Shown: positions 5,548 through 38,697 of the stretch, piece by piece
Position numbering within the stretch: position 1 is the first letter of the stretch
How the letters are laid out: the number at the start of each line of letters is the position of its first letter
DNA from: an uncultured Clostridia bacterium
GTDB taxonomy: Bacteria; Bacillota; Clostridia; Christensenellales; CAG-917
Direction of reading: 5' to 3'
Length of the DNA stretch: 64,000 bases
Assembly: GCA_944363035.1 (NCBI GenBank)
Contig: CALVTS010000001.1
Location: 64,691-128,690, forward strand
The notes under the pieces: generated by a model
The model's input: only the letters and a program-made list of their open reading frames with translations
Told to the model about the DNA's origin: nothing
Database searches by the model: none
Position numbers and translations under genes: made by a program

Positions 5548-6836
5548 AAAACCTCCTCCGCGATGCTCACGACCTCGTCCATATCCGCCTTGCCCACGCA
5601 CTCGGTGCAACACCAGAGTATGCGGTGTTCGTCAAGGGGAAGTCCGCCGAGGATGCCCTTCCTTTCCAAAGCCGCGGTCAATGCCGACGCCTTGCCGGGA
5701 GTGATGGTGACGAACTCGTGGAAAAATTCCTTTTCGTAAAAGAGCTTCGCGCCCACGCGCGTGAGTTCTCGCGCGAGGTAATGCGCGTTGGAGGCGCATT
5801 TCGTCGCAAGGTCTTTGAGCCCGCGCGCGCCCATCAGGGAGAGATATACCGCCGCCGTCAGAGCGCAATGCGCCTGATTGGAACAGATGTTCGACGTGGC
5901 TTTCTCCCTCCTTATATGCTGTTCGCGGGTCTGCAAAGTGAGCACGAACGCGCGATCGCCTTCCGCGTCCTTGGTCTCCCCCACTATGCGGCCGGGGAGC
6001 TTGCGCATGAATTCCCTTTTCGCCGCCATATATCCGAGATAAGGTCCGCCGAAGCTGACGGGGAGCCCGAAAGGCTGAGCGTCGCCGACGGCGACGTCCG
6101 CGCCGCATTCGCCGGGGCTCCTGAACAGCGCGAGAGCGAGCGGGTTGCCGCCCACCACCACTTTCATGCCCTCCGCCTTTGCCGCCGAGACGAGCAGAGA
6201 CACATCCTCGACGATCCCGTAATAGTTGGGGGATTGTATGTAAAGGACGCTCCCGCCCGTCCCGCTTTTCAGGACGGCGTTGCCGTTGTCTGCCGAGAGC
6301 ACCTCGAGGGCTATGCCGCGCGCGCCGAGATAGGTGCGCAGAGTGTCGAGGGTGTCGGGGTCTATATTTGAGAAAGTGACCACCTTCCTCCCCTTGCCCG
6401 CGCACATGACGCACGCTTCCGCCGCCGCCGTCGCGCCGGAATAGTGAGAGGCGGTGGCGACGTCCATGCCCGTGAGCTCGCACATCATGGTCTGAAACTC
6501 GAACGTCGCTTGCAGGATACCCTGGGATATCTCGGGCTGATAGGGAGTGTACGAGGTGAGGAATTCCTCCCTGGAAGTCACGCTCGTCACCGCCGCGGGG
6601 ATATAGTGCACATAGCTCCCCGCGCCTCTGAACACGCTCTTATACGTCGCGTTGCGGGATGCGAGCTCAGCAAGAGCCTTGTATGTTTCCTGCTGGGACC
6701 TGCCTTCGGAGAGCGCGAATTTTTTGCGTCTGAGCTCTTTCGGAAGATCGGAAAAGAGCTCCTCCGCGCTCGTCAGTCCGAGGAGGTCCAGCATCTTGCT
6801 CCTCTCTTTTTCGGAAATGGAAAGATAATCCGCCAT
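5544..6836 (-). CDS. gcvPA: glycine dehydrogenase subunit 1
   Basis: MADYLSISEKERSKMLDLLGL...FRGAGSYVHYIPAAV...TPYQPEISQGILQ, typical of GcvPA. Lies between gcvH and gcvPB. Confidence 0.93.
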   Translation of the reverse strand: MADYLSISEKERSKMLDLLGLTSAEELFSDLPKELRRKKFALSEGRSQQETYKALAELASRNATYKSVFRGAGSYVHYIPAAVTSVTSREEFLTSYTPYQPEISQGILQATFEFQTMMCELTGMDVATASHYSGATAAAEACVMCAGKGRKVVTFSNIDPDTLDTLRTYLGARGIALEVLSADNGNAVLKSGTGGSVLYIQSPNYYGIVEDVSLLVSAAKAEGMKVVVGGNPLALALFRSPGECGADVAVGDAQPFGLPVSFGGPYLGYMAAKREFMRKLPGRIVGETKDAEGDRAFVLTLQTREQHIRREKATSNICSNQAHCALTAAVYLSLMGARGLKDLATKCASNAHYLARELTRVGAKLFYEKEFFHEFVTITPGKASALTAALERKGILGGLPLDEHRILWCCTECVGKADMDEVVSIAEEVL

Positions 6837-6838
6837 GC

Positions 6839-7186
6839 TCACCCCAAAGTAGCCAGATATTCGGCTTCGCTCATGAGCCCGTCGGCTAGGACGGGATCGG
6901 CGACGGCGAAGATCCACACTCCCTCCTCGCCCGCCTTTTCGGGAGAATCGGCGAGTTCGTCGTTGACAGCTCCCACTCTGCCGCTCGCGGGAGAGTTGAC
7001 CTCCGCCACGGCTTTTACGGATTCCAGTTCACAGCAAGGTTCCCCCGCCGTGACCTCGGCGCCCGTCTCGGGCAGATCGACATAGACCACTTCGCCCAGC
7101 TCCTCCGCCGCGTGTGCGCTGATGCCGACATACGCCATACCGTCGCGAAGTTCCACCCATTCATGTGTGCCAGTGTATTGTTTCAT
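6839..7186 (-). CDS. gcvH: glycine cleavage system H protein
   Basis: MKQYTGTHEWVELRDG...CELESVKAVAEVNSP (lipoyl-lysine motif ESVKA). RBS AAGGAGAAGG. Confidence 0.92.
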   Translation of the reverse strand: MKQYTGTHEWVELRDGMAYVGISAHAAEELGEVVYVDLPETGAEVTAGEPCCELESVKAVAEVNSPASGRVGAVNDELADSPEKAGEEGVWIFAVADPVLADGLMSEAEYLATLG

Positions 7187-7219
7187 ATCCTTCTCCTTCA
7201 TGCGTGCAAAAGCCCGCAC

Positions 7220-8278
7220 TTATTTACGTCTCACAAAGGGGAGCTCCGTCCTCGCTACGGACACCGATCTCCCTCTCACGTCGGCGGAAAGCTCTCCCTC
7301 CGCGCCCTTTTTCAGCCTGAGCATGGCTATGCCGCACCCGAGGGTGGGTGAATGCGTGCCCGATGTGCTCCGTCCGACCACGACGCCGTCCGAATACACG
7401 TCGCAATGTTCGCGCACTATGCCCTTCCCCGTCACCCTCACGCCCACGCGCTCGTATTCGGGCGCGTGCGCCAGGATGGCTTGCTTCCCTACAAAATCCT
7501 CTTTCCCGAGCTTGACGGCGAAGTCCAGCCCGACCTCGTTGACGGGGATGTCCTCATCCAGTTCGTGCCCGTAAAGGGGCATACCCGCTTCCAGACGCAA
7601 GGTGTCCCTCGCGCCCAGCCCGCAGGGGATGAGCCCGAATTCTTTCCCCGCCTCGTACACCGCGGCGTACAGCGCCTCGGCGTCGCGGACGGCGGCGTAG
7701 AGCTCGAAGCCGTCCTCCCCCGTATATCCCGTGCGGGAAAGCAACACGGGGATGCCTGCGACCTCCGTCCTCTCCACGAAAGTATAGTACTTCATCGGGA
7801 TGTCGCGGGCAAGTTTTTCCATTATCCTTTGGGAGGCGGGACCCTGCAACGCTATCTGACACACCTCTTCGGACACATCCGAAAAGTCGCACCCCGAAAG
7901 ATATTTCCCGACGTGCGCCGCGTCCTTTTGCACGTTCGCGCCGTTGACCACCACCAAAAATTTGCGGGCGTTCATCCTGTACACCAACACGTCGTCCACC
8001 GCGCCGCCATTTTCGTTGGGCAGGAGGGAATATCTCACCCTGCCGTCCGTCATGCCGCGGATGTCGTTGGTGAGCAACATATTGAGCGCCGCCTCCGCGC
8101 CATCGCCCTCAAAGAGGAATTCCCCCATATGCGAGACGTCGAAGAGCCCCGCCGCGTTCCTCACCGCGCGATGCTCTTCCAGGATGCCGGAATACTGCAC
8201 GGGCAGTTCGTACCCCGCAAACTCCACCATCCTGCCTCCGAGCGCGAGATGCGTGTCGTAAAGCGCAGTCCTTTTCAT
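7220..8278 (-). CDS. gcvT: aminomethyltransferase (glycine cleavage T protein)
   Basis: MKRTALYDTHLALGGRMVEFAGYELPVQYSGILEEHRAVRNAAGLFDVSHMGEF, a canonical GcvT N-terminus. Confidence 0.93.
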   Translation of the reverse strand: MKRTALYDTHLALGGRMVEFAGYELPVQYSGILEEHRAVRNAAGLFDVSHMGEFLFEGDGAEAALNMLLTNDIRGMTDGRVRYSLLPNENGGAVDDVLVYRMNARKFLVVVNGANVQKDAAHVGKYLSGCDFSDVSEEVCQIALQGPASQRIMEKLARDIPMKYYTFVERTEVAGIPVLLSRTGYTGEDGFELYAAVRDAEALYAAVYEAGKEFGLIPCGLGARDTLRLEAGMPLYGHELDEDIPVNEVGLDFAVKLGKEDFVGKQAILAHAPEYERVGVRVTGKGIVREHCDVYSDGVVVGRSTSGTHSPTLGCGIAMLRLKKGAEGELSADVRGRSVSVARTELPFVRRK

Positions 8279-16159: not shown

Positions 16160-16522
16160 GGGGGTGTACCGGCTTCGACAGTCGGTTTGAGACGGGGTAA
16201 GCATGCCGCAGGCTCGTCTGCGTCAACAACGGAAATAAAAAATAAACGCGAAAAATACGCAAAAGAACTCCACCATGGAGTTCGCCCTCGCTGCATAATT
16301 TAGTCAGCGTGTCGCCCTCGGGTTTTCTGTTCCCCGAGCAAGCGGCATCATAAAAACAGACAACGCGGTCCCATCGCCCGGTAAGACCGCTGTCATCACG
16401 GGCTAGTCGATCCGAGGCTCGCCGCCGTGCCGAAGTGAGAGACCCCTAAACGTCGGATAAGCATGTAGAAATCACCGCCAACGGCCGGTTGGACCGGGGT
16501 TCAACTCCCCGCACCTCCACCA
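16160..16522 (+). ncRNA. ssrA: tmRNA (transfer-messenger RNA)
   Basis: 5' GGGGGUGUACCGGCUUCGACAG and 3' GGACCGGGGUUCAACUCCCCGCACCUCCACCA. 7-bp acceptor stem with a G3:U pair, T-arm and CCA encoded. The internal tag frame ends ...FALAA-TAA (tentative tag AKNTQKNSTMEFALAA). Confidence 0.95.
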
Positions 16523-16910
16523 CAAAAAGCGCTTGCTCTGCAAGCGCTTTTCTTGTCTGAGAGCGGGGAGTTTTACCTCTCGCTGACGCGATTTTACGCC
16601 CTGCGTGAACTCCGCACGCAGATCAGACGGCGCAAAATTCGCTATTCCGTCGCGCTTTGCGCTCCTTACGACTCCCCGCACCTCCACCACAAAAAGCGCT
16701 TGCTTTGCAAGCGCTTTTCTTGTCTGAGAGCGGGGAGTTTTACCTCTCGCTGACGCGATTCTTTGCCCCACCGAAAATTCTTTCGGCGGGGACCCCGATG
16801 TTTACCCCACCGAAAATTCTTTCGGCGGGGACCCCGAGGCGCCCTGCGTGAACTCCGCACGCAGATCGTATGGCGCAGAATACGCTATTCCGTCGCGCTT
16901 TGCGCCGCAA
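16504..16910. repeat. nested direct-repeat block including a duplicated tmRNA 3' end
   Basis: A: 16504-16593 equals 16671-16760 (90 nt, 1 mismatch; the last 19 nt of ssrA plus its terminator and 40 nt beyond). B: 16598-16662 approximately equals 16841-16905 (hairpin CTGCGTG/CACGCAG). C: 16766-16798 equals 16805-16837 (tandem, hairpin CCGAAA/TTTCGG). Order is A-B-A-C-C-B. Confidence 0.9.
16527..16555 (+). terminator. rho-independent terminator of ssrA
   Basis: AAGCGCTTG, ctctg loop, CAAGCGCTT, then TTTCTT. Confidence 0.8.
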
Positions 16911-16980
16911 TGCACACGGGGCAGGCAGTTTGAAAAACAGTAGCCGTATGAGATCGGCTCCCTGTCGGTGGCGGGGAGGG

Positions 16981-17823
16981 TCACGGGGTGGAGGGGGTGG
17001 AGGGATAGAGAGCGGCGAGGAGGGAGGAGACGCGTTGACGGGTGAGGGGGTGGATGGCGTTGGGTGCGAGCTCGGCGAGGGGGGCGAGGACGAACTCGCG
17101 TTTGGTCATCTCGGGATGCGGGAGGATGAGATCCCCCTCCCCTCTCGTCTCGTTGCCGAAGATGAGGATGTCGAGGTCGAGGGTCCTGTCACCCCAATGC
17201 AGGTCGCGCGTTCTGTCGCACTCGTTTTCGATGCGGCGGATGAGGCGGAGCAAGCCGTCCGCGTCGTGCAGGGTGACCACTTGCAATGCGGAATTGAGGA
17301 ACTCGTTTTGCGCCGCGCCGCCGTAGGGAGCGGTGCGGATGCGGCGGCTCTCCCTGACGGAAAGCACGAGCCTGTCCTCCGAAAGGAGGCGCACCGCCTT
17401 GTCCATATACGCGTCCCTGTCACCTATGCTCGACCCCATGCCGAGATACGCGGTGGTACGCCTGACCTCTGCGCGCACGGCGACGGAGCGGAACACCCCT
17501 TTCATGGGCGCGTCGGGCTTGTCAACGGTGACCTCCGCGCGAGCGAACGCGGGGAAAGAGAGCATGATCTCTCTTGCGAGAGAGAGCGCGAGGCACTCCA
17601 ACAGATTTTTGCTTTCCCGACACAAAAAGGCTTTTATCAGCTTGCAAACGGCGGCATAACTGACGGTTTTGTCAATATCGTCGCATTCTGCGGCTTGCGT
17701 GAGATCGAGGTCCAACACAGCCGAGACCAAGAATCTCTGCGCATCCGTCTTTTCTTCGGGGTTGACGCCGTGGCAGGCAGTCACTTCGTAATCGCGGATC
17801 AAGATGCTTCCGTTCACGCTCAT
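16981..17823 (-). CDS. folB-folK: bifunctional dihydroneopterin aldolase / 2-amino-4-hydroxy-6-hydroxymethyldihydropteridine diphosphokinase
   Basis: N-terminal FolB-like region (ILIRDYEVTACHGVNPEEK...DDIDKTVSYAAV). C-terminal HPPK region (AYLGMGSSIGDRD...RTAPYGG...WGDRTLDLDILIFGN...LILPHPEM). Confidence 0.88.
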   Translation of the reverse strand: MSVNGSILIRDYEVTACHGVNPEEKTDAQRFLVSAVLDLDLTQAAECDDIDKTVSYAAVCKLIKAFLCRESKNLLECLALSLAREIMLSFPAFARAEVTVDKPDAPMKGVFRSVAVRAEVRRTTAYLGMGSSIGDRDAYMDKAVRLLSEDRLVLSVRESRRIRTAPYGGAAQNEFLNSALQVVTLHDADGLLRLIRRIENECDRTRDLHWGDRTLDLDILIFGNETRGEGDLILPHPEMTKREFVLAPLAELAPNAIHPLTRQRVSSLLAALYPSTPSTP

Positions 17824-17831
17824 ATCCTCTC

Positions 17832-18617
17832 CTATCGGCGGCGGGCGAGAGCCCTTATCGCCATCAGATTTTCTTTGACGTCGTGTACGCGCACAAACAG
17901 CACGCCCATCCTCGCCGCGTCCGCGCTGGTGCGCATGGTCGCCGTGAGCCTGTTTTCGGGCTCGCCGCCGAGGAATGACTTTCTGGACGCGCCCAGAAGC
18001 AAAGGATAGCCCGTCGCCGCAAGGAGGTCATAATGCTCCAACAAAAATCTGTCCTCCTCCGCTCCGCGGTTGAACCCGATGCCGCCGTCCAGGATGATGT
18101 GCTCGGGAGGAACGCCCGCGCGCACCGCCTTTGCCGCGGCGGCGGAGAGTCCCGTGAGTTTGTCCGTCATAAGGTCGGCGACCGTGCTATGCCGTCTGTC
18201 GTGCATGATGCACAGCGACGCGCCGTATCTTGCCACTACTTCCGCCATCCCGGCATAGCGCAGGCAGGACACGTCGTTTATCATATCGGCGCCGGCGCCG
18301 AGAGCCGCCTCTGCGACTTCGGGATAGAACGTATCCACCGAAAGCGGCGCGTCGGTCGCGGCGCGTACTCTTTCCAAGGCGGGCAAAAGCAAACTCATCT
18401 CTTCCAGGGCGCTCACGGTCGCGGCGCCGGGACGAGTGGATTGCGCGCCGATATCCAGAATCTCGGCGCCGTCCGCCGTCATCTCGACGGCGCGTGCCGC
18501 GATATCCTCCCTCGTGACGCGGCTAGCCGCCCAAAAGGAATCGGACGTGACGTTGAGGATGCCCATGACGTGCGTCCCCTCGCAGAAAGTCCTGCCGCGC
18601 ACCGAAAAAGCGTTCAT
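17832..18617 (-). CDS. folP: dihydropteroate synthase
   Basis: VMGILNVTSDSFWAAS...AEILDIGAQSTRPGA...INDVS...GIGFNRG, canonical DHPS motifs. Confidence 0.92.
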   Translation of the reverse strand: MNAFSVRGRTFCEGTHVMGILNVTSDSFWAASRVTREDIAARAVEMTADGAEILDIGAQSTRPGAATVSALEEMSLLLPALERVRAATDAPLSVDTFYPEVAEAALGAGADMINDVSCLRYAGMAEVVARYGASLCIMHDRRHSTVADLMTDKLTGLSAAAAKAVRAGVPPEHIILDGGIGFNRGAEEDRFLLEHYDLLAATGYPLLLGASRKSFLGGEPENRLTATMRTSADAARMGVLFVRVHDVKENLMAIRALARRR

Positions 18618-19203: not shown

Positions 19204-20511
19204 TCAATTTTTTGTCAGCTCGTGAAAGAGGGTGAGCGAACCGAACACGACGACGACGTCCGCATCCGAGGATAGCGCGGCGCGCACGCCGTCGGGTACC
19301 CTCCCGCACACCCGCACCGAGAGCCCCCCTCCCGTCGCCTCGGCAAGCGCCTCTGCGGGAAGGGCGCGGGGGGAATCCGGAGTGACGGCAAACGCCTCCG
19401 TAAGCAGAGGCGACACCTCCCCGAGCACGCCGCGATAGTCCTTGTCCGCAAGCACACCGACCACGCCCGCTATCTTCGCGCCGGGAAAATACTCCCTGAG
19501 CGCGTTCGCGAGCGTCGCCGCGCCCTGAGGATTGTGCGAACCGTCCAAAACGACGGTTTTCCCGTGCGGAATGTATATATCATACGGCGAATCTGCAACA
19601 TCGTCTTCGGTGAGCACCTCGAATCTCGCGTGCCATACCGCCCTTTTCAAACCCTCTTTCACCGCGCTTTGCGGGATGGGATAGCCCGCCTTGCGCACGG
19701 ACTCCGCCGCCTCTATCGCCAATGCGGCGTTGAGGAGCTGGTGTTCGCCGAGAAGACGGATCATGTACTCTTCGCCCTTATATTCGAAACGCTGTCCCGC
19801 AGGGGAACGCGAGATGAGACGGGGCACGCCCGAAACGCGCGCCAAGGGATACAACACCTCAGCCGCCTCTCTTTCCTGAGGGCAGGTGACCGCCTTCCCC
19901 TTTATTATCGCCGCCTTTTCGGCGGCTATCTCGCCGAGGGTATCGCCGAGAAGGGCGCAATGATCCAGACCTATTTTCGCTATCACGGCGAGGAGCTTGT
20001 CCGAAACGGCGTTGGTGGCGTCCCATCTGCCGCCTAGCCCCGTTTCCAGCACGGCGAGGTCGCATCCTTCGGCGGCGAAAGCGGAGAGCGCGAGAGCGGT
20101 CTCCTGCTCGAACGCGGTGGGGCGGAACTCTTTCATCGCGCGCGCTCTGCCCTCCCCGTCGGGGGCGGAGGAACGCAAACCGCGCTCCCGCAACACCGCG
20201 TCGCGGACGGCGGTCATATACGCCGCCACTTTGTCATCCGAAAAGGGAACGCCGTCCAGCAAAAAACGCTCGTTGTAGCGGAGCACGGAGGGGGAATTGT
20301 ACGTCCCCGTCCTGTACCCCGCCGCGACGAACACCGAGGTCAGCATCGCACAGACGGAGCCCTTCCCGTTTGTCCCCGCGACGTGCACAATGCCGAAAGA
20401 GCGGTCGGGAGACCCCATGGCGTCCAGGAGCTCACGCTCCCTTTCCAGCCCGTAATCCGACCCGTCCGACTCTATGCGGCGGATATAATCGACGGCTTCT
20501 TCGTAAAACAA
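19204..20511 (-). CDS. folC: bifunctional folylpolyglutamate synthase / dihydrofolate synthase
   Basis: VHVAGTNGKGSVCAMLTSV (P-loop) and LETGLGGRWDATN. I prefer the in-frame TTG at 20511 (AGGAGG 6 nt upstream; gives MFYEEAVDYI) over the GTG at 20565, which lies inside the riboswitch. Confidence 0.85.
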   Translation of the reverse strand: MFYEEAVDYIRRIESDGSDYGLERERELLDAMGSPDRSFGIVHVAGTNGKGSVCAMLTSVFVAAGYRTGTYNSPSVLRYNERFLLDGVPFSDDKVAAYMTAVRDAVLRERGLRSSAPDGEGRARAMKEFRPTAFEQETALALSAFAAEGCDLAVLETGLGGRWDATNAVSDKLLAVIAKIGLDHCALLGDTLGEIAAEKAAIIKGKAVTCPQEREAAEVLYPLARVSGVPRLISRSPAGQRFEYKGEEYMIRLLGEHQLLNAALAIEAAESVRKAGYPIPQSAVKEGLKRAVWHARFEVLTEDDVADSPYDIYIPHGKTVVLDGSHNPQGAATLANALREYFPGAKIAGVVGVLADKDYRGVLGEVSPLLTEAFAVTPDSPRALPAEALAEATGGGLSVRVCGRVPDGVRAALSSDADVVVVFGSLTLFHELTKN

Positions 20512-20541
20512 AAAGCACCTCCTCAGAAGCACTTCTCGCAA

Positions 20542-20641
20542 GTGAAGCGGGAGTGACGTATGCACCGCAAGTCATCAGACTTTTCGTCCGCGAGCACCCC
20601 CCGTCTCCACGGCACTTGACGCGCATATGTCTACAACTTCC
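20542..20641 (-). promoter_or_regulatory. THF (tetrahydrofolate) riboswitch, class I
   Basis: Minus strand: GAAGUUG-UAG-ACAUAUG-CGCGUCAAGUG-P3(CCGUGGAG..CUCGCGG, loop GGGGGUG)-ACGAA-P4(AAGUC ugau GACUU)-GCGGUG-CAUACGU-CACUCC-CGCUUC. All helices, the conserved joining strands and the loop/CACUCC pseudoknot match the known THF-I architecture. Confidence 0.8.
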
Positions 20642-35054: not shown

Positions 35055-35582
35055 ATGGAACTTGCTCTCAAAGCCAAAAAAAGAAATTTCATCTTCGCTG
35101 TCGTGCTTACGGTGGCGCTCGCGGCAGGCATACCCTGCATAGTGATGGGCGCGATAGGGCTCAAACCGCCAAGCCACGACAACGCGGGATATATAGTCCT
35201 CCTGACATTCGGCATAATATGCGTGGTGGCGGGGTTTTACGGCTCGCCCATCGCGTGGTCACGTCTCGCCATCCTCAATCAGGAGCTCACCCTCGTGAAA
35301 GCGGTCACGGAGGAACACCTCCACACCGTGGCGGACCTTGCCCAACGGCTCTCCGTCAACGGGAAGACCGCTTCCGCCACACTCAACAACTGCATAAGAA
35401 AAGGATACCTCGTGGGATTCATCCGCGAAGGAGACGCCCTCGTGCTCAACGAAAACCGCGCCCTAGCCCCCACCGAATATACGACGGAATGCGCGCATTG
35501 CGGGGCGACGGTCACCCTGCAAAAAGGCGAAAGGAGCAAATGCCCGTACTGCGGCTCCCCCCTCTCTCTCCCCGAAAAATAA
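35055..35582 (+). CDS. membrane-anchored protein with winged-helix-like segment and C-terminal zinc ribbon
   Basis: ATG at 35055 with GGAG 5 nt upstream. 2 TM helices (FIFAVVLTVALAAGIPCIVMGAI, YIVLLTFGIICVVAGFYGSPIAW). HTH-like LHTVADLAQRLSVNGKTASATLNNCIRKGYLVGF. CxxC...CxxC (CAHCG...CPYCG). Confidence 0.7.
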   Translation: MELALKAKKRNFIFAVVLTVALAAGIPCIVMGAIGLKPPSHDNAGYIVLLTFGIICVVAGFYGSPIAWSRLAILNQELTLVKAVTEEHLHTVADLAQRLSVNGKTASATLNNCIRKGYLVGFIREGDALVLNENRALAPTEYTTECAHCGATVTLQKGERSKCPYCGSPLSLPEK

Positions 35583-35602: not shown

Positions 35603-35632
35603 AAAAGCCGCTCGCCCGAGCGGCTTTTTTGT
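35603..35632 (+). terminator. rho-independent terminator
   Basis: AAAA-GCCGCTC-gccc-GAGCGGC-TTTTTTG. Confidence 0.8.
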
Positions 35633-35643
35633 TGTATGCTACG

Positions 35644-35804
35644 TTTTACTCCCACGTGAACTTTTTCGGGGCGTGCTTGACTCACACATAAACCCATTCG
35701 GAGTGGAGCCTGAACTTTACGTTTCTTTTCGGGGTGTGCTCGATTCCCACGTACACTTATTCGGAGTGTGCTTAAACACGACGTACACTTATTCGGAGTG
35801 GAGC
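35644..35804. repeat. left arm: 5 contiguous 30-33 bp units
   Basis: Units at 35644-35676, 35677-35709, 35710-35739, 35740-35771 and 35772-35804, e.g. TCGATTCCCACGTACACTTATTCGGAGTGTGC. They are the reverse complement of the right-arm units. Confidence 0.9.
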
Positions 35805-36536
35805 CGCCTAGCCAAACTTGCACAGGGCGTAGCCCTCTTGCAAGTCGGCGGCGACGAAGTGAGTGCCGAGGGCGAGACGTAAAGTGCGTCGGCAATGCGC
35901 CATTCTCTTCGCGAAGCGGGCGCATTGCAAGCGGCATAACATGGCGGCGCCGCAGAGGCGCCGTCCTCGGTAGCCCTCATGCCCGAGCGCCGAAGGTTTC
36001 CCCCAAAATGGTGGGTTCCCTTTTAAGGGGGAACGATTTTGGGGGAAACCCGCAGGAAGGGGGCAAAAATATTTCCCTGTCGCGGGGACGTAACCCTCAA
36101 ATTAAATTAGATTGAATCCCACGCACACTTATTCGTCGAGTTCGGGGACGCTCTGAATAAGTTTACGTCGTATTCAGGCTAGTTTAATGGGGTATACGTC
36201 CCCTAATATGGTAATATTGCTCCCCCTCCTCCCCTTCGGGACTCCTCCCCCACTCGGAATAGAGGACTGTCCTCCTAAAATGCGGGATATACTTTTTCAT
36301 AAAGGCGCATTCTGCGCCTTTATGAAAACACCTCTTGAAAAAGGTTTGAATCTCGCACTTGCATAATCAAGCGGATACCAGTATAGACTGAACGTCGCTC
36401 GCGGGGCGAGGAGGGCGACTCGACGCGCACCGAGCCCGTGTCTACTTAATTATCCGTCTAGCTTGCGAGGTCGCAGATACGCGCCGCGACTTGCAAGAGC
36501 GGGCGCAAACGCCCGCTGTGCAAGTTTGGCTAGGCG

Positions 36537-36731
36537 GCTCCACTCCGAATAAGTTCACGTGAAGTTCAAGCACACTCCGAATAAGTATACGTGGGAGTCA
36601 AGCTCCACTCCGAATGAGTGTTCGTGGGGTTCAAACACGTCTCCGAAAGAGAGACGTAAAGTTCAGGCTCCACCCCGAATAAGTGCACGTGGGAGTCAAA
36701 CACGCTTCGGACGAGTGCACGTGGGGTTCAA
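36537..36731. repeat. right arm: 6 contiguous 32-33 bp units
   Basis: Units at 36537-36569, 36570-36601, 36602-36634, 36635-36666, 36667-36699 and 36700-36731. Consensus GCTCCACTCCGAATAAGTGCACGTGGGAGTCAA alternates with a diverged variant, giving a period of about 65 bp. Confidence 0.9.
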
Positions 36732-36879
36732 AATTGTCCTCACCCAAACGCCTGTTGAAAACGTCGCCATTTGGATGCAGAATGCGAAAGCGCCCCTGTC
36801 GAGAGGCGGAGCTTACTTGATAGTAAGTGAGCATCTACGGCAGGGACGCTGACAAAGTTCTGCGCCAAATGGCGGCGTT

Positions 36880-38697
36880 TTAGGATTTTTTGGATTGCAA
36901 CTTCAACCTCTCACTCCCCGACAACACCAACTTGCGTATGCGCAGATGTTGGGGGGTGACTTCGAGCATTTCGTCGTCGTTGAGGAATTCGAGGGATTCT
37001 TCAAGGCTGAATTTGCGGGGGGTGTTGAGGCGGAGGGCTTCGTCGGAGCCTGCGGCGCGCATATTGGTGACGTGTTTGCGCTTGCAGACGTTGACGCGGA
37101 TGTCTTCGGCTTTGGGAGACATCCCGACCACCATCCCCTCGTACACCATGGTCTGCGGGTCGATGAACAGGGTGCCGCGATCCTGGGCGTTGAAGAGCCC
37201 GTAAGTCGCCGCCTCACCCGTCTCGAACGCAACGAGCGACCCCGTGAATCTGCGCTGGATGGGTCCCTTGTAAGGCGCGTATCCTTCGAAGAGCTGGTTC
37301 ATGACGCCCTCCCCCTTGGTGTCGGTGAGGAACTCGTTCTTGAACCCGAACAGCCCGCGTGAGGGCACGATGAATTCCATCCTTATGCGGCTGCCTTTGG
37401 GCTCCATGGTGACGAGCTCCCCTTTGCGCACTCCCATGCGCCCCATGACCGACCCCACGCACTCCGAGGGGACGTCGATGAACAGCCTCTCCATGGGCTC
37501 GCATTTTTCGCCGTCTATGGTGCGGAAGATGACCTGCGGAGTGCCCACGCCGAATTCGTATCCCTCGCGGCGCATGGTCTCGATGAGGATGCTGAGGTGC
37601 ATCTCTCCCCTGCCGCACACTTTGAAGGTGTCCGGGCTGTCCGTCTGATAGACGCGCAGGGAGACATCCTTCAACAGCTCGCGGAAAAGTCTGTCGCGGA
37701 GTTGTCTGGACGTGACATACTTCCCCTCCTTGCCCGCAAACGGGCTGTCGTTGACGGAGAAGTTCATTTCTATGGTGGGCTCGCCTATCTTGACGAAGGG
37801 GACGGGATCTATCTTGCCGGGGACGCAGAGGGTGTTGCCTATCGTGATGTTCTCAATGCCGCTGAAACACACGATGTCCCCCACTTCCGCCTCCTCGACG
37901 GCGGCGCGCTTCAAGCCCTCGATCTGGAAAAGGGTGACCACCTTGCTCTTGTAGGGCGAGAGCCCGGTATAGTCGCACACCATGACCTCTTCGCCCACCC
38001 CGATCTTGCCGCGCTCTATCTTGCCGATGCCTATGCGCCCGACGTAATCGTTATAGTCTATGGCGGACACAAGCAGTTGCAGATCGCCGTCGGGATCTCC
38101 CTCGGGAGGCTCGATGTAGTCGAGTATGGTCTCGAAAAGCGGAGTGAGATCGGTGCCCGGGACGTTGTAGTCTCGGGTGGCGGTGGCGTTCTTGCCGGAG
38201 CAATAGAGGATGGGGCTCATGAGTTGCTCGTCGTCCGCGCCGAGGTCGAGCAAAAGTTCCAGCACCTCGTCCCCCACCTCAGAAAGTCTGGCGTCGGGAC
38301 GGTCTATCTTGTTGACGACTATGATGATCCTGAGCCCGAGTTCCAACGCCTTTTCCACCACGAATCTGGTCTGAGGCATGGGACCCTCAGCCGCGTCCAC
38401 CAAGAGGATGACCCCGCTCACCATTTTGAGCACGCGCTCCACCTCGCCGGAGAAATCGGCGTGTCCCGGGGTGTCGATGATGTTGATCTTCACTCCCCCC
38501 CAATGCACGGAGGTGTTTTTGGCAAGGATGGTGATGCCGCGCTCGCGTTCGAGCGCGCCGGAATCCATGACGCAGGTCTGCACCTGCTGATTGTCACGGA
38601 AGGTGCCCGACTGACGGAGCATACCGTCCACCAAGGTGGTCTTGCCGTGATCGACGTGAGCGATTATTGCGACGTTTCTGAGGTCATGTCTTATCAT
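36880..38697 (-). CDS. typA: translational GTPase TypA/BipA
   Basis: Trimmed to [31 protein letters not shown]...[16 protein letters not shown]...[10 protein letters not shown]. Confidence 0.95.

Follow-up and report, generated by a model that had tools for sequence, protein, structure and literature searches.

Between the gene for a 175-aa protein and typA, in an uncultured Clostridia bacterium, lies about 1.1 kb of DNA that raises a simple question: what is a stretch with two opposed arrays of tandem repeats and no credible gene? The window analysed here is the whole 64,000-nt stretch of DNA around this locus. A preliminary description, made from the letters alone, left three readings side by side: a non-autonomous transposon with multi-site ends, iteron or centromere-like protein-binding arrays, or a large RNA closed by an imperfect helix of about 190 bp. 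The reading we prefer, with a probability of roughly 0.55, is that the element belongs to a new foldback-like or BOX-like family of non-autonomous, modular intergenic repeats, and that its arrays are substrates for recombination. Its features suggest selfish or structural DNA more than a gene for an RNA.

Two opposed arrays of direct repeats

The arrays and the left boundary of the element are as follows.

35603–35632, plus strand: intrinsic terminator of the upstream 175-aa gene, in the flank and outside the element, marking its left boundary
35644–35805, no strand assigned: left array, five tandem units of 30–33 bp, alternately of A type and B type, in the TTATTCGGAG sense
36536–36731, no strand assigned: right array, six tandem units of 32–33 bp running opposite to those of the left array; higher-order period of 65 bp

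Both neighbouring genes of the locus are convergent and terminated.

Five left and six right units of 32–33 bp in opposed orientation had been proposed, and conserved cores, tandem repeat analysis (TRF) and inverted pairs all place them at the same positions. Cores of the TTCGGRG type start at 35665, 35697, 35728, 35760 and 35792 in the left arm (spacing 32, 31, 32 and 32), and six cores follow one another in the right arm at spacings of 32, 32, 33, 33 and 32. On 36536–36730, TRF returned a period of 32/33 (4.8–5 copies) and one of 65 (2.6–3 copies), the latter bearing out the higher-order period of about 65 bp. On the left arm it found just 2.3 copies of period 32 (35728–35800), because the outer left units are more diverged. 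An inverted-repeat search paired 35738–35825 with 36516–36603 (88 nt, 90% complementary) and 35644–35729 with 36647–36732 (86 nt, 78% complementary). With arms that are 78–90% complementary over about 200 bp, the element has terminal inverted repeats. This complementarity continues inward for about 48 nt past the limits first given to the arms (35805–35853 with 36480–36536). Global arm-to-arm alignment also reproduced the mirror pairing L1-R6, L2-R5, L3-R4, L4-R2 and L5-R1, which leaves R3 unpaired.

The units are confined to this locus within the 64-kb window. The 25-nt unit core (at most 3 mismatches) occurs four times against an expected 0.00, and CTCCGAATAAGT (at most 1 mismatch) seven times against an expected 0.15. 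All of these occurrences fall within the locus. Units are contiguous, without spacers, and neighbours are 62–76% identical to each other. A CRISPR array, which the preliminary description had already set aside, is ruled out because no spacers separate the units and the repeats are not near-identical. Folded as single-stranded DNA, the right array does no better than its shuffles (z = -0.61). This marks the units as direct repeats, unlike the palindromes of REP sequences. Clear hairpins among units are limited to the B-type units and to a solo form found in contig L001.

Short-read contigs usually break inside the element: nearly all contigs encoding the same 175-aa protein or TypA end there. 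Such breaks could be taken to mean that the locus is a unique local minisatellite expansion, as the preliminary description had allowed, or an assembly artefact. Either is scarcely credible, and both are refuted by evidence from several loci and several assemblies. Contig L003, of the same strain but from another sample, is 100% identical to the window up to 36269. L129, again the same strain from another sample, is 99.6% identical from 36015. These two independent assemblies overlap at 36015–36269 and match the window, which excludes faulty assembly as the source of the arrangement. Contig L151, from another strain, crosses a full-length copy, and homologous copies at other loci and in another species rule out a local expansion.

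An inverted dimer of a 390-nt module

The interior, about 730 bp between the arrays, consists of two diverged inverted copies of a hairpin-rich module of about 390 nt, here called H. With the right half (36150–36544, plus strand) as sole query, nhmmer matched 35797–36134 on the minus strand (model positions 6–395, E = 2.7e-11). The parts of the interior, and one module beyond the right array, are these.

35797–36139, minus strand: module H type N, the left interior half, running outward from the centre; homologous to the right half but diverged, by nhmmer and by alignment A1 (18 H copies)
36101–36188, no strand assigned: central hairpin, the tail-to-tail meeting of the H modules; inverted repeat of 34 nt, 79% complementary
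36150–36544, plus strand: module H type M, the right interior half
36219–36258: C-rich block of type M, conserved in H, with the pattern CCCCCTCCTCCCC TTCG GGACTCCTCCCCC
36294–36328: perfect 16-bp hairpin, confined to the type M copies of this species
36391–36450: invariant G-rich block within module H type M
36478–36541: outer three-tier hairpin of module H, abutting the array
36755–36884, minus strand: T2 module, a long hairpin with arms at 36758–36774 and 36865–36881, beginning at the typA stop codon

The two H copies meet tail to tail at the central hairpin. The complete element is therefore one large degenerate palindrome, in the order array, H, centre, inverted H, inverted array. Unit-like sequence also lies at its middle: the arms of the central hairpin are copies of the array unit, as direct-repeat matches show, and the inner end of H is unit-like.

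T2 looks like a terminator stem with a palindromic insert of about 100 nt in its loop. At the same position the sister species has a plain terminator hairpin only. T2-like copies accompany the family elsewhere, on contig L161 and at the sister-species locus, and T2 is a dispersed repeat that travels with the family as part of the same mosaic. The preliminary description had missed both features, the inverted dimer in the interior and the inclusion of the typA terminator hairpin in the mosaic.

Searches for genes and known RNA families

Open reading frames of 59–141 aa overlap the region on both strands. None of them had a Pfam match, in keeping with the earlier view that the locus holds no credible ORF, and six-frame translations of the element's ORFs had no match in a protein database. 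The reading frame of a 59-aa ORF across the C-rich block is kept neither in type M2, a further H type described below, nor in the sister-species copies. On these two grounds, the Pfam result and the lost frame, coding potential was rejected.

A domain search of the window genes examined found no transposase, integrase or rep gene, as had been noted before. The roughly 74 kb examined contain no gene for a transposase, a recombinase or an HUH protein. Among the genes scanned, up to about 30 kb to the left and to the right of the locus, none has a recombinase domain, and no coding copy was seen at any locus examined. Nor was any rep, par or rtp-like gene found near the locus. A replication origin or terminus was rejected, since there is no GC-skew switch at the locus.

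The Rfam search that the preliminary description had called for gave nothing at E <= 1 in the window, and permissive thresholds (E <= 1–5) on the window, L139 and L151 brought up no relevant family. Two specific RNA functions were also considered and rejected. A type I toxin, or an mRNA whose Shine-Dalgarno sequence is sequestered, would need a start codon after the GGAGG tracts, and there is none. Against a CsrA sponge, an idea prompted by the GGA that every unit contains, stand an unsuitable motif context and the excessive variability of the family. Literature searches with the unit and module sequences returned chance primer matches only.

Copies at other loci and in a sister species

The element is not confined to this locus. 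A second copy lies about 34.5 kb to the right of the first, at about 70.7 kb, just outside the window and upstream of a peptidase M28 gene. It is present in five contigs (L162–L166). L162, which crosses it, carries a single H and six units, and L163 carries an N+M dimer and nine units; L164–L166 terminate inside it. Both loci are found on one 71-kb contig, which holds the full copy L151 at locus 1 and L166 at locus 2. A scan of metagenome contigs with a 20-base unit pattern gave L161 as its sole match. On this short contig the interior, the right array and T2 lead up to a different gene, and homology stops exactly at the stop codon of that gene, which suggests a third context.

Two related species, with TypA 96% and 91% identical to that of the host, have simple terminators only at the corresponding site, which is bordered by typA and a homologue of the 175-aa gene. 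A hidden Markov model (HMM) of H nevertheless found copies elsewhere in the 96% species, in 10 of 10 contigs, in the intergenic region between MS-channel and C_GCAxxG genes. These copies are accompanied by diverged 32–33-nt units and T2-like hairpins and stand in either orientation, each in five of ten strains. The host species has a plain terminator at this MS-channel/C_GCAxxG site, empty of the element. The host gene content (a THF riboswitch, ThiT/YuaJ and C_GCAxxG), taken with the sample names, would fit a bacterium of the gut belonging to the Firmicutes or Clostridia.

Altogether three or four loci of the family were seen. Scans of viral contigs and of plasmid and phage collections found no copy. 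A scan of genome contigs with a three-fold TTCGGRG pattern matched at least 120 loci, dominated by short-period tandem repeats of other kinds; of the 120 listed, none is related. The element is intergenic, placed directly behind stop codons and beside or nested in terminator hairpins.

A preliminary suggestion had been to look for further copies, empty sites and target-site duplications. More loci came to light, as did an empty site in the sister species, but a target-site duplication did not: the flanks read at the two host loci and at that of the sister species contain no direct repeat, the true termini being uncertain, and none of the loci examined has sharply defined termini. Of the three original readings, that of a non-autonomous element with multi-site ends comes nearest in spirit. 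Several loci, different ones in two species, and variation both in presence and in structure speak for it; no target-site duplication, termini or transposase were found to go with them. Mobility is thus suggested by the distribution of the copies.

Strains differ in orientation, unit number and modules

Among strains whose TypA is essentially identical, the element at locus 1 takes several forms. Contigs L153, L154, L155 and L156 have the orientation of the window. L151, which crosses the entire element, and L002, L004, L157 and L160 have the inverted one. In L001 the arrays are absent, and a solo perfect 31-nt hairpin made from both outer tips stands in place of the element; that this hairpin arose by assembly collapse was judged unlikely on de Bruijn-graph reasoning. 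L169 is a single-H deletion variant in which the microhomology TAAGTG marks the junction of the centre with the inside of T2. Unit number per arm ranges from 2 to 7 at locus 1 and reaches 9 at locus 2. Between strains the element is 71–92% identical, compared with 95–100% for its flanks.

L151 shows how orientation and unit content are connected. Its left arm begins with units 3–4 of the window's left array (100% and 91% identical), continues with units 2–4 of the window's right array (91%, 100% and 88%) and then enters module M. This arm is the product expected of an inversion with a crossover inside the arrays. Some of the orientation differences could instead be independent replacements rather than inversions in situ. 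The type or orientation of the H beside the flanking gene varies at locus 2 and at the sister-species locus as well.

Such variation might point to a programmed inversion switch, in which a distant recombinase uses the units as shufflon-like crossover sites, flips the M/N interior and so changes the module that faces the neighbouring gene. Both orientations are common among strains at locus 1, H type or orientation varies at locus 2 and at the sister-species locus (at the latter with five of ten strains in each orientation), and the one crossover that was mapped falls within the arrays, in register with the units. However, the roughly 30 kb to each side of the locus contain no recombinase gene, inversion would switch neither a promoter nor a coding segment, and the neighbours are convergent and terminated. 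Arms of 200 bp that are 78–90% complementary could also invert by homologous recombination, and the two orientations are known from comparing strains rather than from within one clone. We regard a programmed switch as unlikely.

The arrays may equally be seen as platforms for a protein, be it as iterons, a centromere or a replication-fork barrier serving chromosome replication or segregation. Units of 32–33 bp span about three turns of the helix, the opposed layout recalls polar terminators or centromeres, and arrays that do not fold by themselves fit a double-stranded DNA site. What makes this very improbable is the way the arrays are distributed and built. Several loci lie within about 71 kb of one genome, the arrays are absent at this site in L001 and in the sister species, unit number varies between 2 and 9, and neighbouring units share only 62–76% identity; there is no GC-skew switch and no rep, par or rtp-like gene. 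The earlier iteron or centromere reading is likewise not supported. We return to the reading of the element as a modular repeat family, in which the arrays may act as recombination or binding sites.

Module lineages probably older than the species

Besides N, the H modules include two types, M and M2, with about 60% identity between them. Compared with its sister-species counterpart, either type is 77–83% identical. Fourfold-degenerate sites of typA, taken as a neutral proxy, are 66% identical between the two species, so that within-type identity across species exceeds the proxy. From this comparison, the lineages either arose before the two species separated or were exchanged afterwards. Within the species, the M copies of loci 1 and 2 are intermingled, at 88–96% identity. 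Modules constrained in blocks and shuffled between loci fit the pattern of a long-lived multi-copy family.

Pairing at the level of DNA or RNA

Constraint of this kind could also come from an RNA. H might be a family of structured non-coding RNA genes (for example a C-rich sRNA of the anti-Shine-Dalgarno type) with paralogues M, M2 and N, often in convergent or divergent pairs, the arrays lying in the transcript or serving as a regulatory platform. The folding of H gives this reading its strength. Type M as single-stranded DNA folds far better than its shuffles (z = -7.0), and RNAalifold on alignment A1 predicts 48 pairs, 15 of them with compensatory changes. The outer three-tier hairpin exchanges CUUGCA/UGCAAG for CGUUCA/UGAACG and CGGGCG/CGCCCG for GCGGC/GCCGC around a conserved AGAG/CUGU internal loop, and a long-range pairing joins conserved C-rich and G-rich tracts, CCCCCUCCUCCCC-type with GGGGCGAGGAGGG-type. 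Some stretches of about 50 nt do not vary between species, the module types seem to predate the divergence of the two species, and cross-species identity is above the neutral proxy.

The same helices can be read on either strand, however. The reverse strand of the H alignment folds equally well. In the 35 helix pairs predicted on both strands, 610 of 630 cells (97%) are Watson–Crick, and wobble cells number two G.U on the plus strand and four on the minus strand. Mismatches between the arms are of no particular kind either (7 G.U, 11 A.C and 13 others). Neither the shared helices nor the arms thus have the strand-specific tolerance of G.U that conserved RNA helices would have. Helices that are almost purely Watson–Crick, with no strand bias, place the palindromy at the level of DNA and give no sign of RNA.

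Other features of H agree with this. A promoter scan of the element and inspection of alignment A1 found no conserved sigma-70-type promoter. The sole terminator-like hairpin in H is missing from type M2 and from the sister-species copies, and H is found facing either way with respect to its neighbouring genes. Variation of H within the species is far greater than that of the flanks, no Rfam family matches it, and templated correction of quasi-palindromes can mimic covariation. A non-coding RNA gene family is therefore rather unlikely. The large RNA closed by a 190-bp helix, the third of the original readings, is contradicted by the absence of G.U bias, an interior that inverts, Watson–Crick pairing on both strands and the lack of a promoter. 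We infer that the palindromy is kept as single-stranded DNA hairpins or cruciforms, or through templated quasi-palindrome correction, and not in RNA; the element probably has no RNA product. The invariant blocks (up to about 50 nt across species) and the 15 compensatory pairs would also fit a selected structure of RNA or of single-stranded DNA.

Relation to known repeats

The pneumococcal BOX elements offer one comparison. They have the form boxA-(boxB)n-boxC and are mobilised by an enzyme that is inferred at most (PMC3049150). Like the element here they are modular, gene-less and intergenic, join a variable tandem array to modules that pair with each other, vary in unit number between strains and cluster with other repeats near gene ends (PMC3049150). 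They differ in size and layout: BOX elements measure 100–300 bp and have a single central array, the present element about 1.1–1.3 kb, with two outward-facing, opposed arrays around an inverted H dimer; inversion polymorphism is not among the described features of BOX, and the host is a different one. As far as we know, the consensus of the unit and of H is unlike boxA, boxB and boxC, and the likeness is architectural only.

Eukaryotic Foldback and Galileo elements offer another. Like the element here, they have long inverted termini made of tandem short units, a variable non-coding centre and heterogeneous size, and they are linked to inversions. Foldback elements leave target-site duplications of 7–9 bp, and some of their copies are autonomous and encode a transposase. 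For the element here neither a target-site duplication nor a copy with a transposase was found, and its inverted part also includes a 390-nt module. BOX and Foldback/Galileo are the closest known architectures. The element is a member of neither, and we know of no relationship in sequence to either.

REP, BIME and REPIN sequences are intergenic mosaics mobilised by RAYT transposases. They lie after stop codons or between convergent genes, include solo hairpins and persist for long in a lineage, and in placement, solo hairpin forms and persistence the present family resembles them. The units here, by contrast, are not significant palindromes on their own (z = -0.61), module H has no counterpart among these repeats, and a reading of the unit sequences found no GTAG-type motif. 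REP-type repeats number in the hundreds of copies, whereas three or four loci were seen here.

The ends of Mu, Tn7, Tn402 and Tn552 contain several similar inverted sites of 19–22 bp, fixed in number and not strictly contiguous, and these transposons carry genes and make 5-bp duplications. Several similar sites per end, in inverted sets, are common to them and to the element, which differs in having 2–9 contiguous units of 32–33 bp, no genes and no duplication that could be found. With invertons and shufflons it shares a segment between inverted repeats, the occurrence of both orientations and many potential crossover sites; unlike them it has no invertase nearby, nothing that is switched, and arrays of 200 bp in place of sites of 10–30 bp. 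Terminal inverted repeats also recall a miniature inverted-repeat transposable element (MITE), but neither a target-site duplication nor, in about 74 kb, an insertion sequence was found. We know of no bacterial description of a foldback architecture with inverted ends of tandem units, and literature searches found no bacterial foldback architecture. The repeat family is previously undescribed.

A model of exchange between opposed arrays

In the model that we favour, a complete element consists of an array of n units, H, the centre, inverted H and an array of m units, and would be non-autonomous. It probably spreads, or is copied between loci, through a factor supplied in trans, or else by recombination and gene conversion. 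The opposed arrays would offer substrates for crossover in many registers. Exchange between a left and a right unit would invert the interior and redistribute units between the arms. Slippage, unequal exchange and deletions at microhomologies would change unit number and could reduce the dimer to a single H or a solo hairpin. The arrays are perhaps binding sites for a protein. Any effect on the host is probably incidental, with extra terminators or insulators, a recombination hotspot and breaks in short-read assemblies as the candidates.

A bolder claim would make this the first bacterial foldback-type element, self-propagating, with arrays that are the binding or crossover sites of a trans-acting recombinase or transposase which both inverts and moves it, and with M, M2 and N lineages kept since before the host species diverged. 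This we hold to be doubtful, and put it forward tentatively.

If the modular-repeat reading is true, gut Clostridia-like bacteria carry a large and dynamic class of gene-less palindromic repeats. These would reshuffle intergenic DNA through inversion, gain and loss of units and swapping of modules, replace or duplicate terminators beside housekeeping genes such as typA, and, every 35 kb or so, cause systematic breaks in metagenome assemblies from short reads. Module types shared across species, together with the invariant blocks, point to a specific molecular partner, be it an enzyme or a binding protein. On the practical side, an HMM of H and the unit would flag assembly break points, and the variable unit number and orientation could serve as a marker for strain typing.

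Insertions and deletions beside typA

In the sister species, whose TypA is 96% identical, a 544-aa GxGYxYP-family gene can occupy the interval between typA and the homolog of the gene for the 175-amino-acid protein, and its presence varies among strains.

5962-7597, GxGYxYP-family gene, present in L131, L132, L135, L137, L139 and L140, as opposed to L133, L134, L136 and L138

Because this gene comes and goes among sister-species strains, the typA/175-aa intergenic site is a hotspot of insertions and deletions in both species.

The terminator hairpin of typA (36755-36884, minus strand) was compared with the sister-species loci L133 and L134 (5820-5860). In the species of the window, its loop carries a palindromic insert of about 100 nt with the ends ATTTGG...CCAAAT. 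The insert is strongly variable, with about 70% identity across strains sharing an identical TypA, and it is also present at other loci. It looks like a separate small repeat that would insert into hairpin loops.

On the other side of the site, the 175-aa protein (35055-35582, plus strand) is predicted from its sequence to have two N-terminal membrane helices. It shows a weak MarR-like wHTH match and a C-terminal zinc ribbon, every match falling below Pfam cut-offs. Its gene stays next to typA in relatives without the element, and the protein is therefore probably unconnected to the element.

Hairpin growth and other palindromes

Copies of the family also vary internally. Within the sister-species locus, some 240 nt of L139 are duplicated in tandem (1181-1560); the duplicated stretch takes in the C-rich end of the hairpin-rich module H and two array units. 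In L163, the N+M dimer at the second locus, module M is interrupted by a hairpin insert of about 40 nt (about 505-545). These are further instances of growth hairpin by hairpin.

Near the start of contig L162 (1-300), about 3 kb past the second locus, lies an additional long palindrome, roughly 300 nt in length (GAATAATACGAACCAG ... CTGGTTCGTATTATTC). This may represent a separate hairpin repeat family of the same genome.

Among the matches listed by a pattern scan of the genome collection is a chance one, L032, from a Bacteroidales MAG. Arrays of tandem 33-35-nt units (…GCAAATGCTAATTCGGGG…) occur there at minus-strand offsets of about 5750-6400, each ending in an inverted unit copy as a cap. 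The architecture is superficially like that of the element, but sequence and phylum are unrelated.

Other features of the window

Two RNA features were annotated elsewhere.

16160-16522, plus strand, tmRNA gene, tag peptide AKNTQKNSTMEFALAA
20543-20641, minus strand, THF riboswitch, 59.7 bits

Sites adjoining tmRNA genes are often targets of integration. A 379-aa ORF lies immediately 3' of this one (16870-18009) and had no match in a Pfam search at 1e-5. The THF riboswitch is upstream of a FolC-like gene of the Mur-ligase family (19204-20565).
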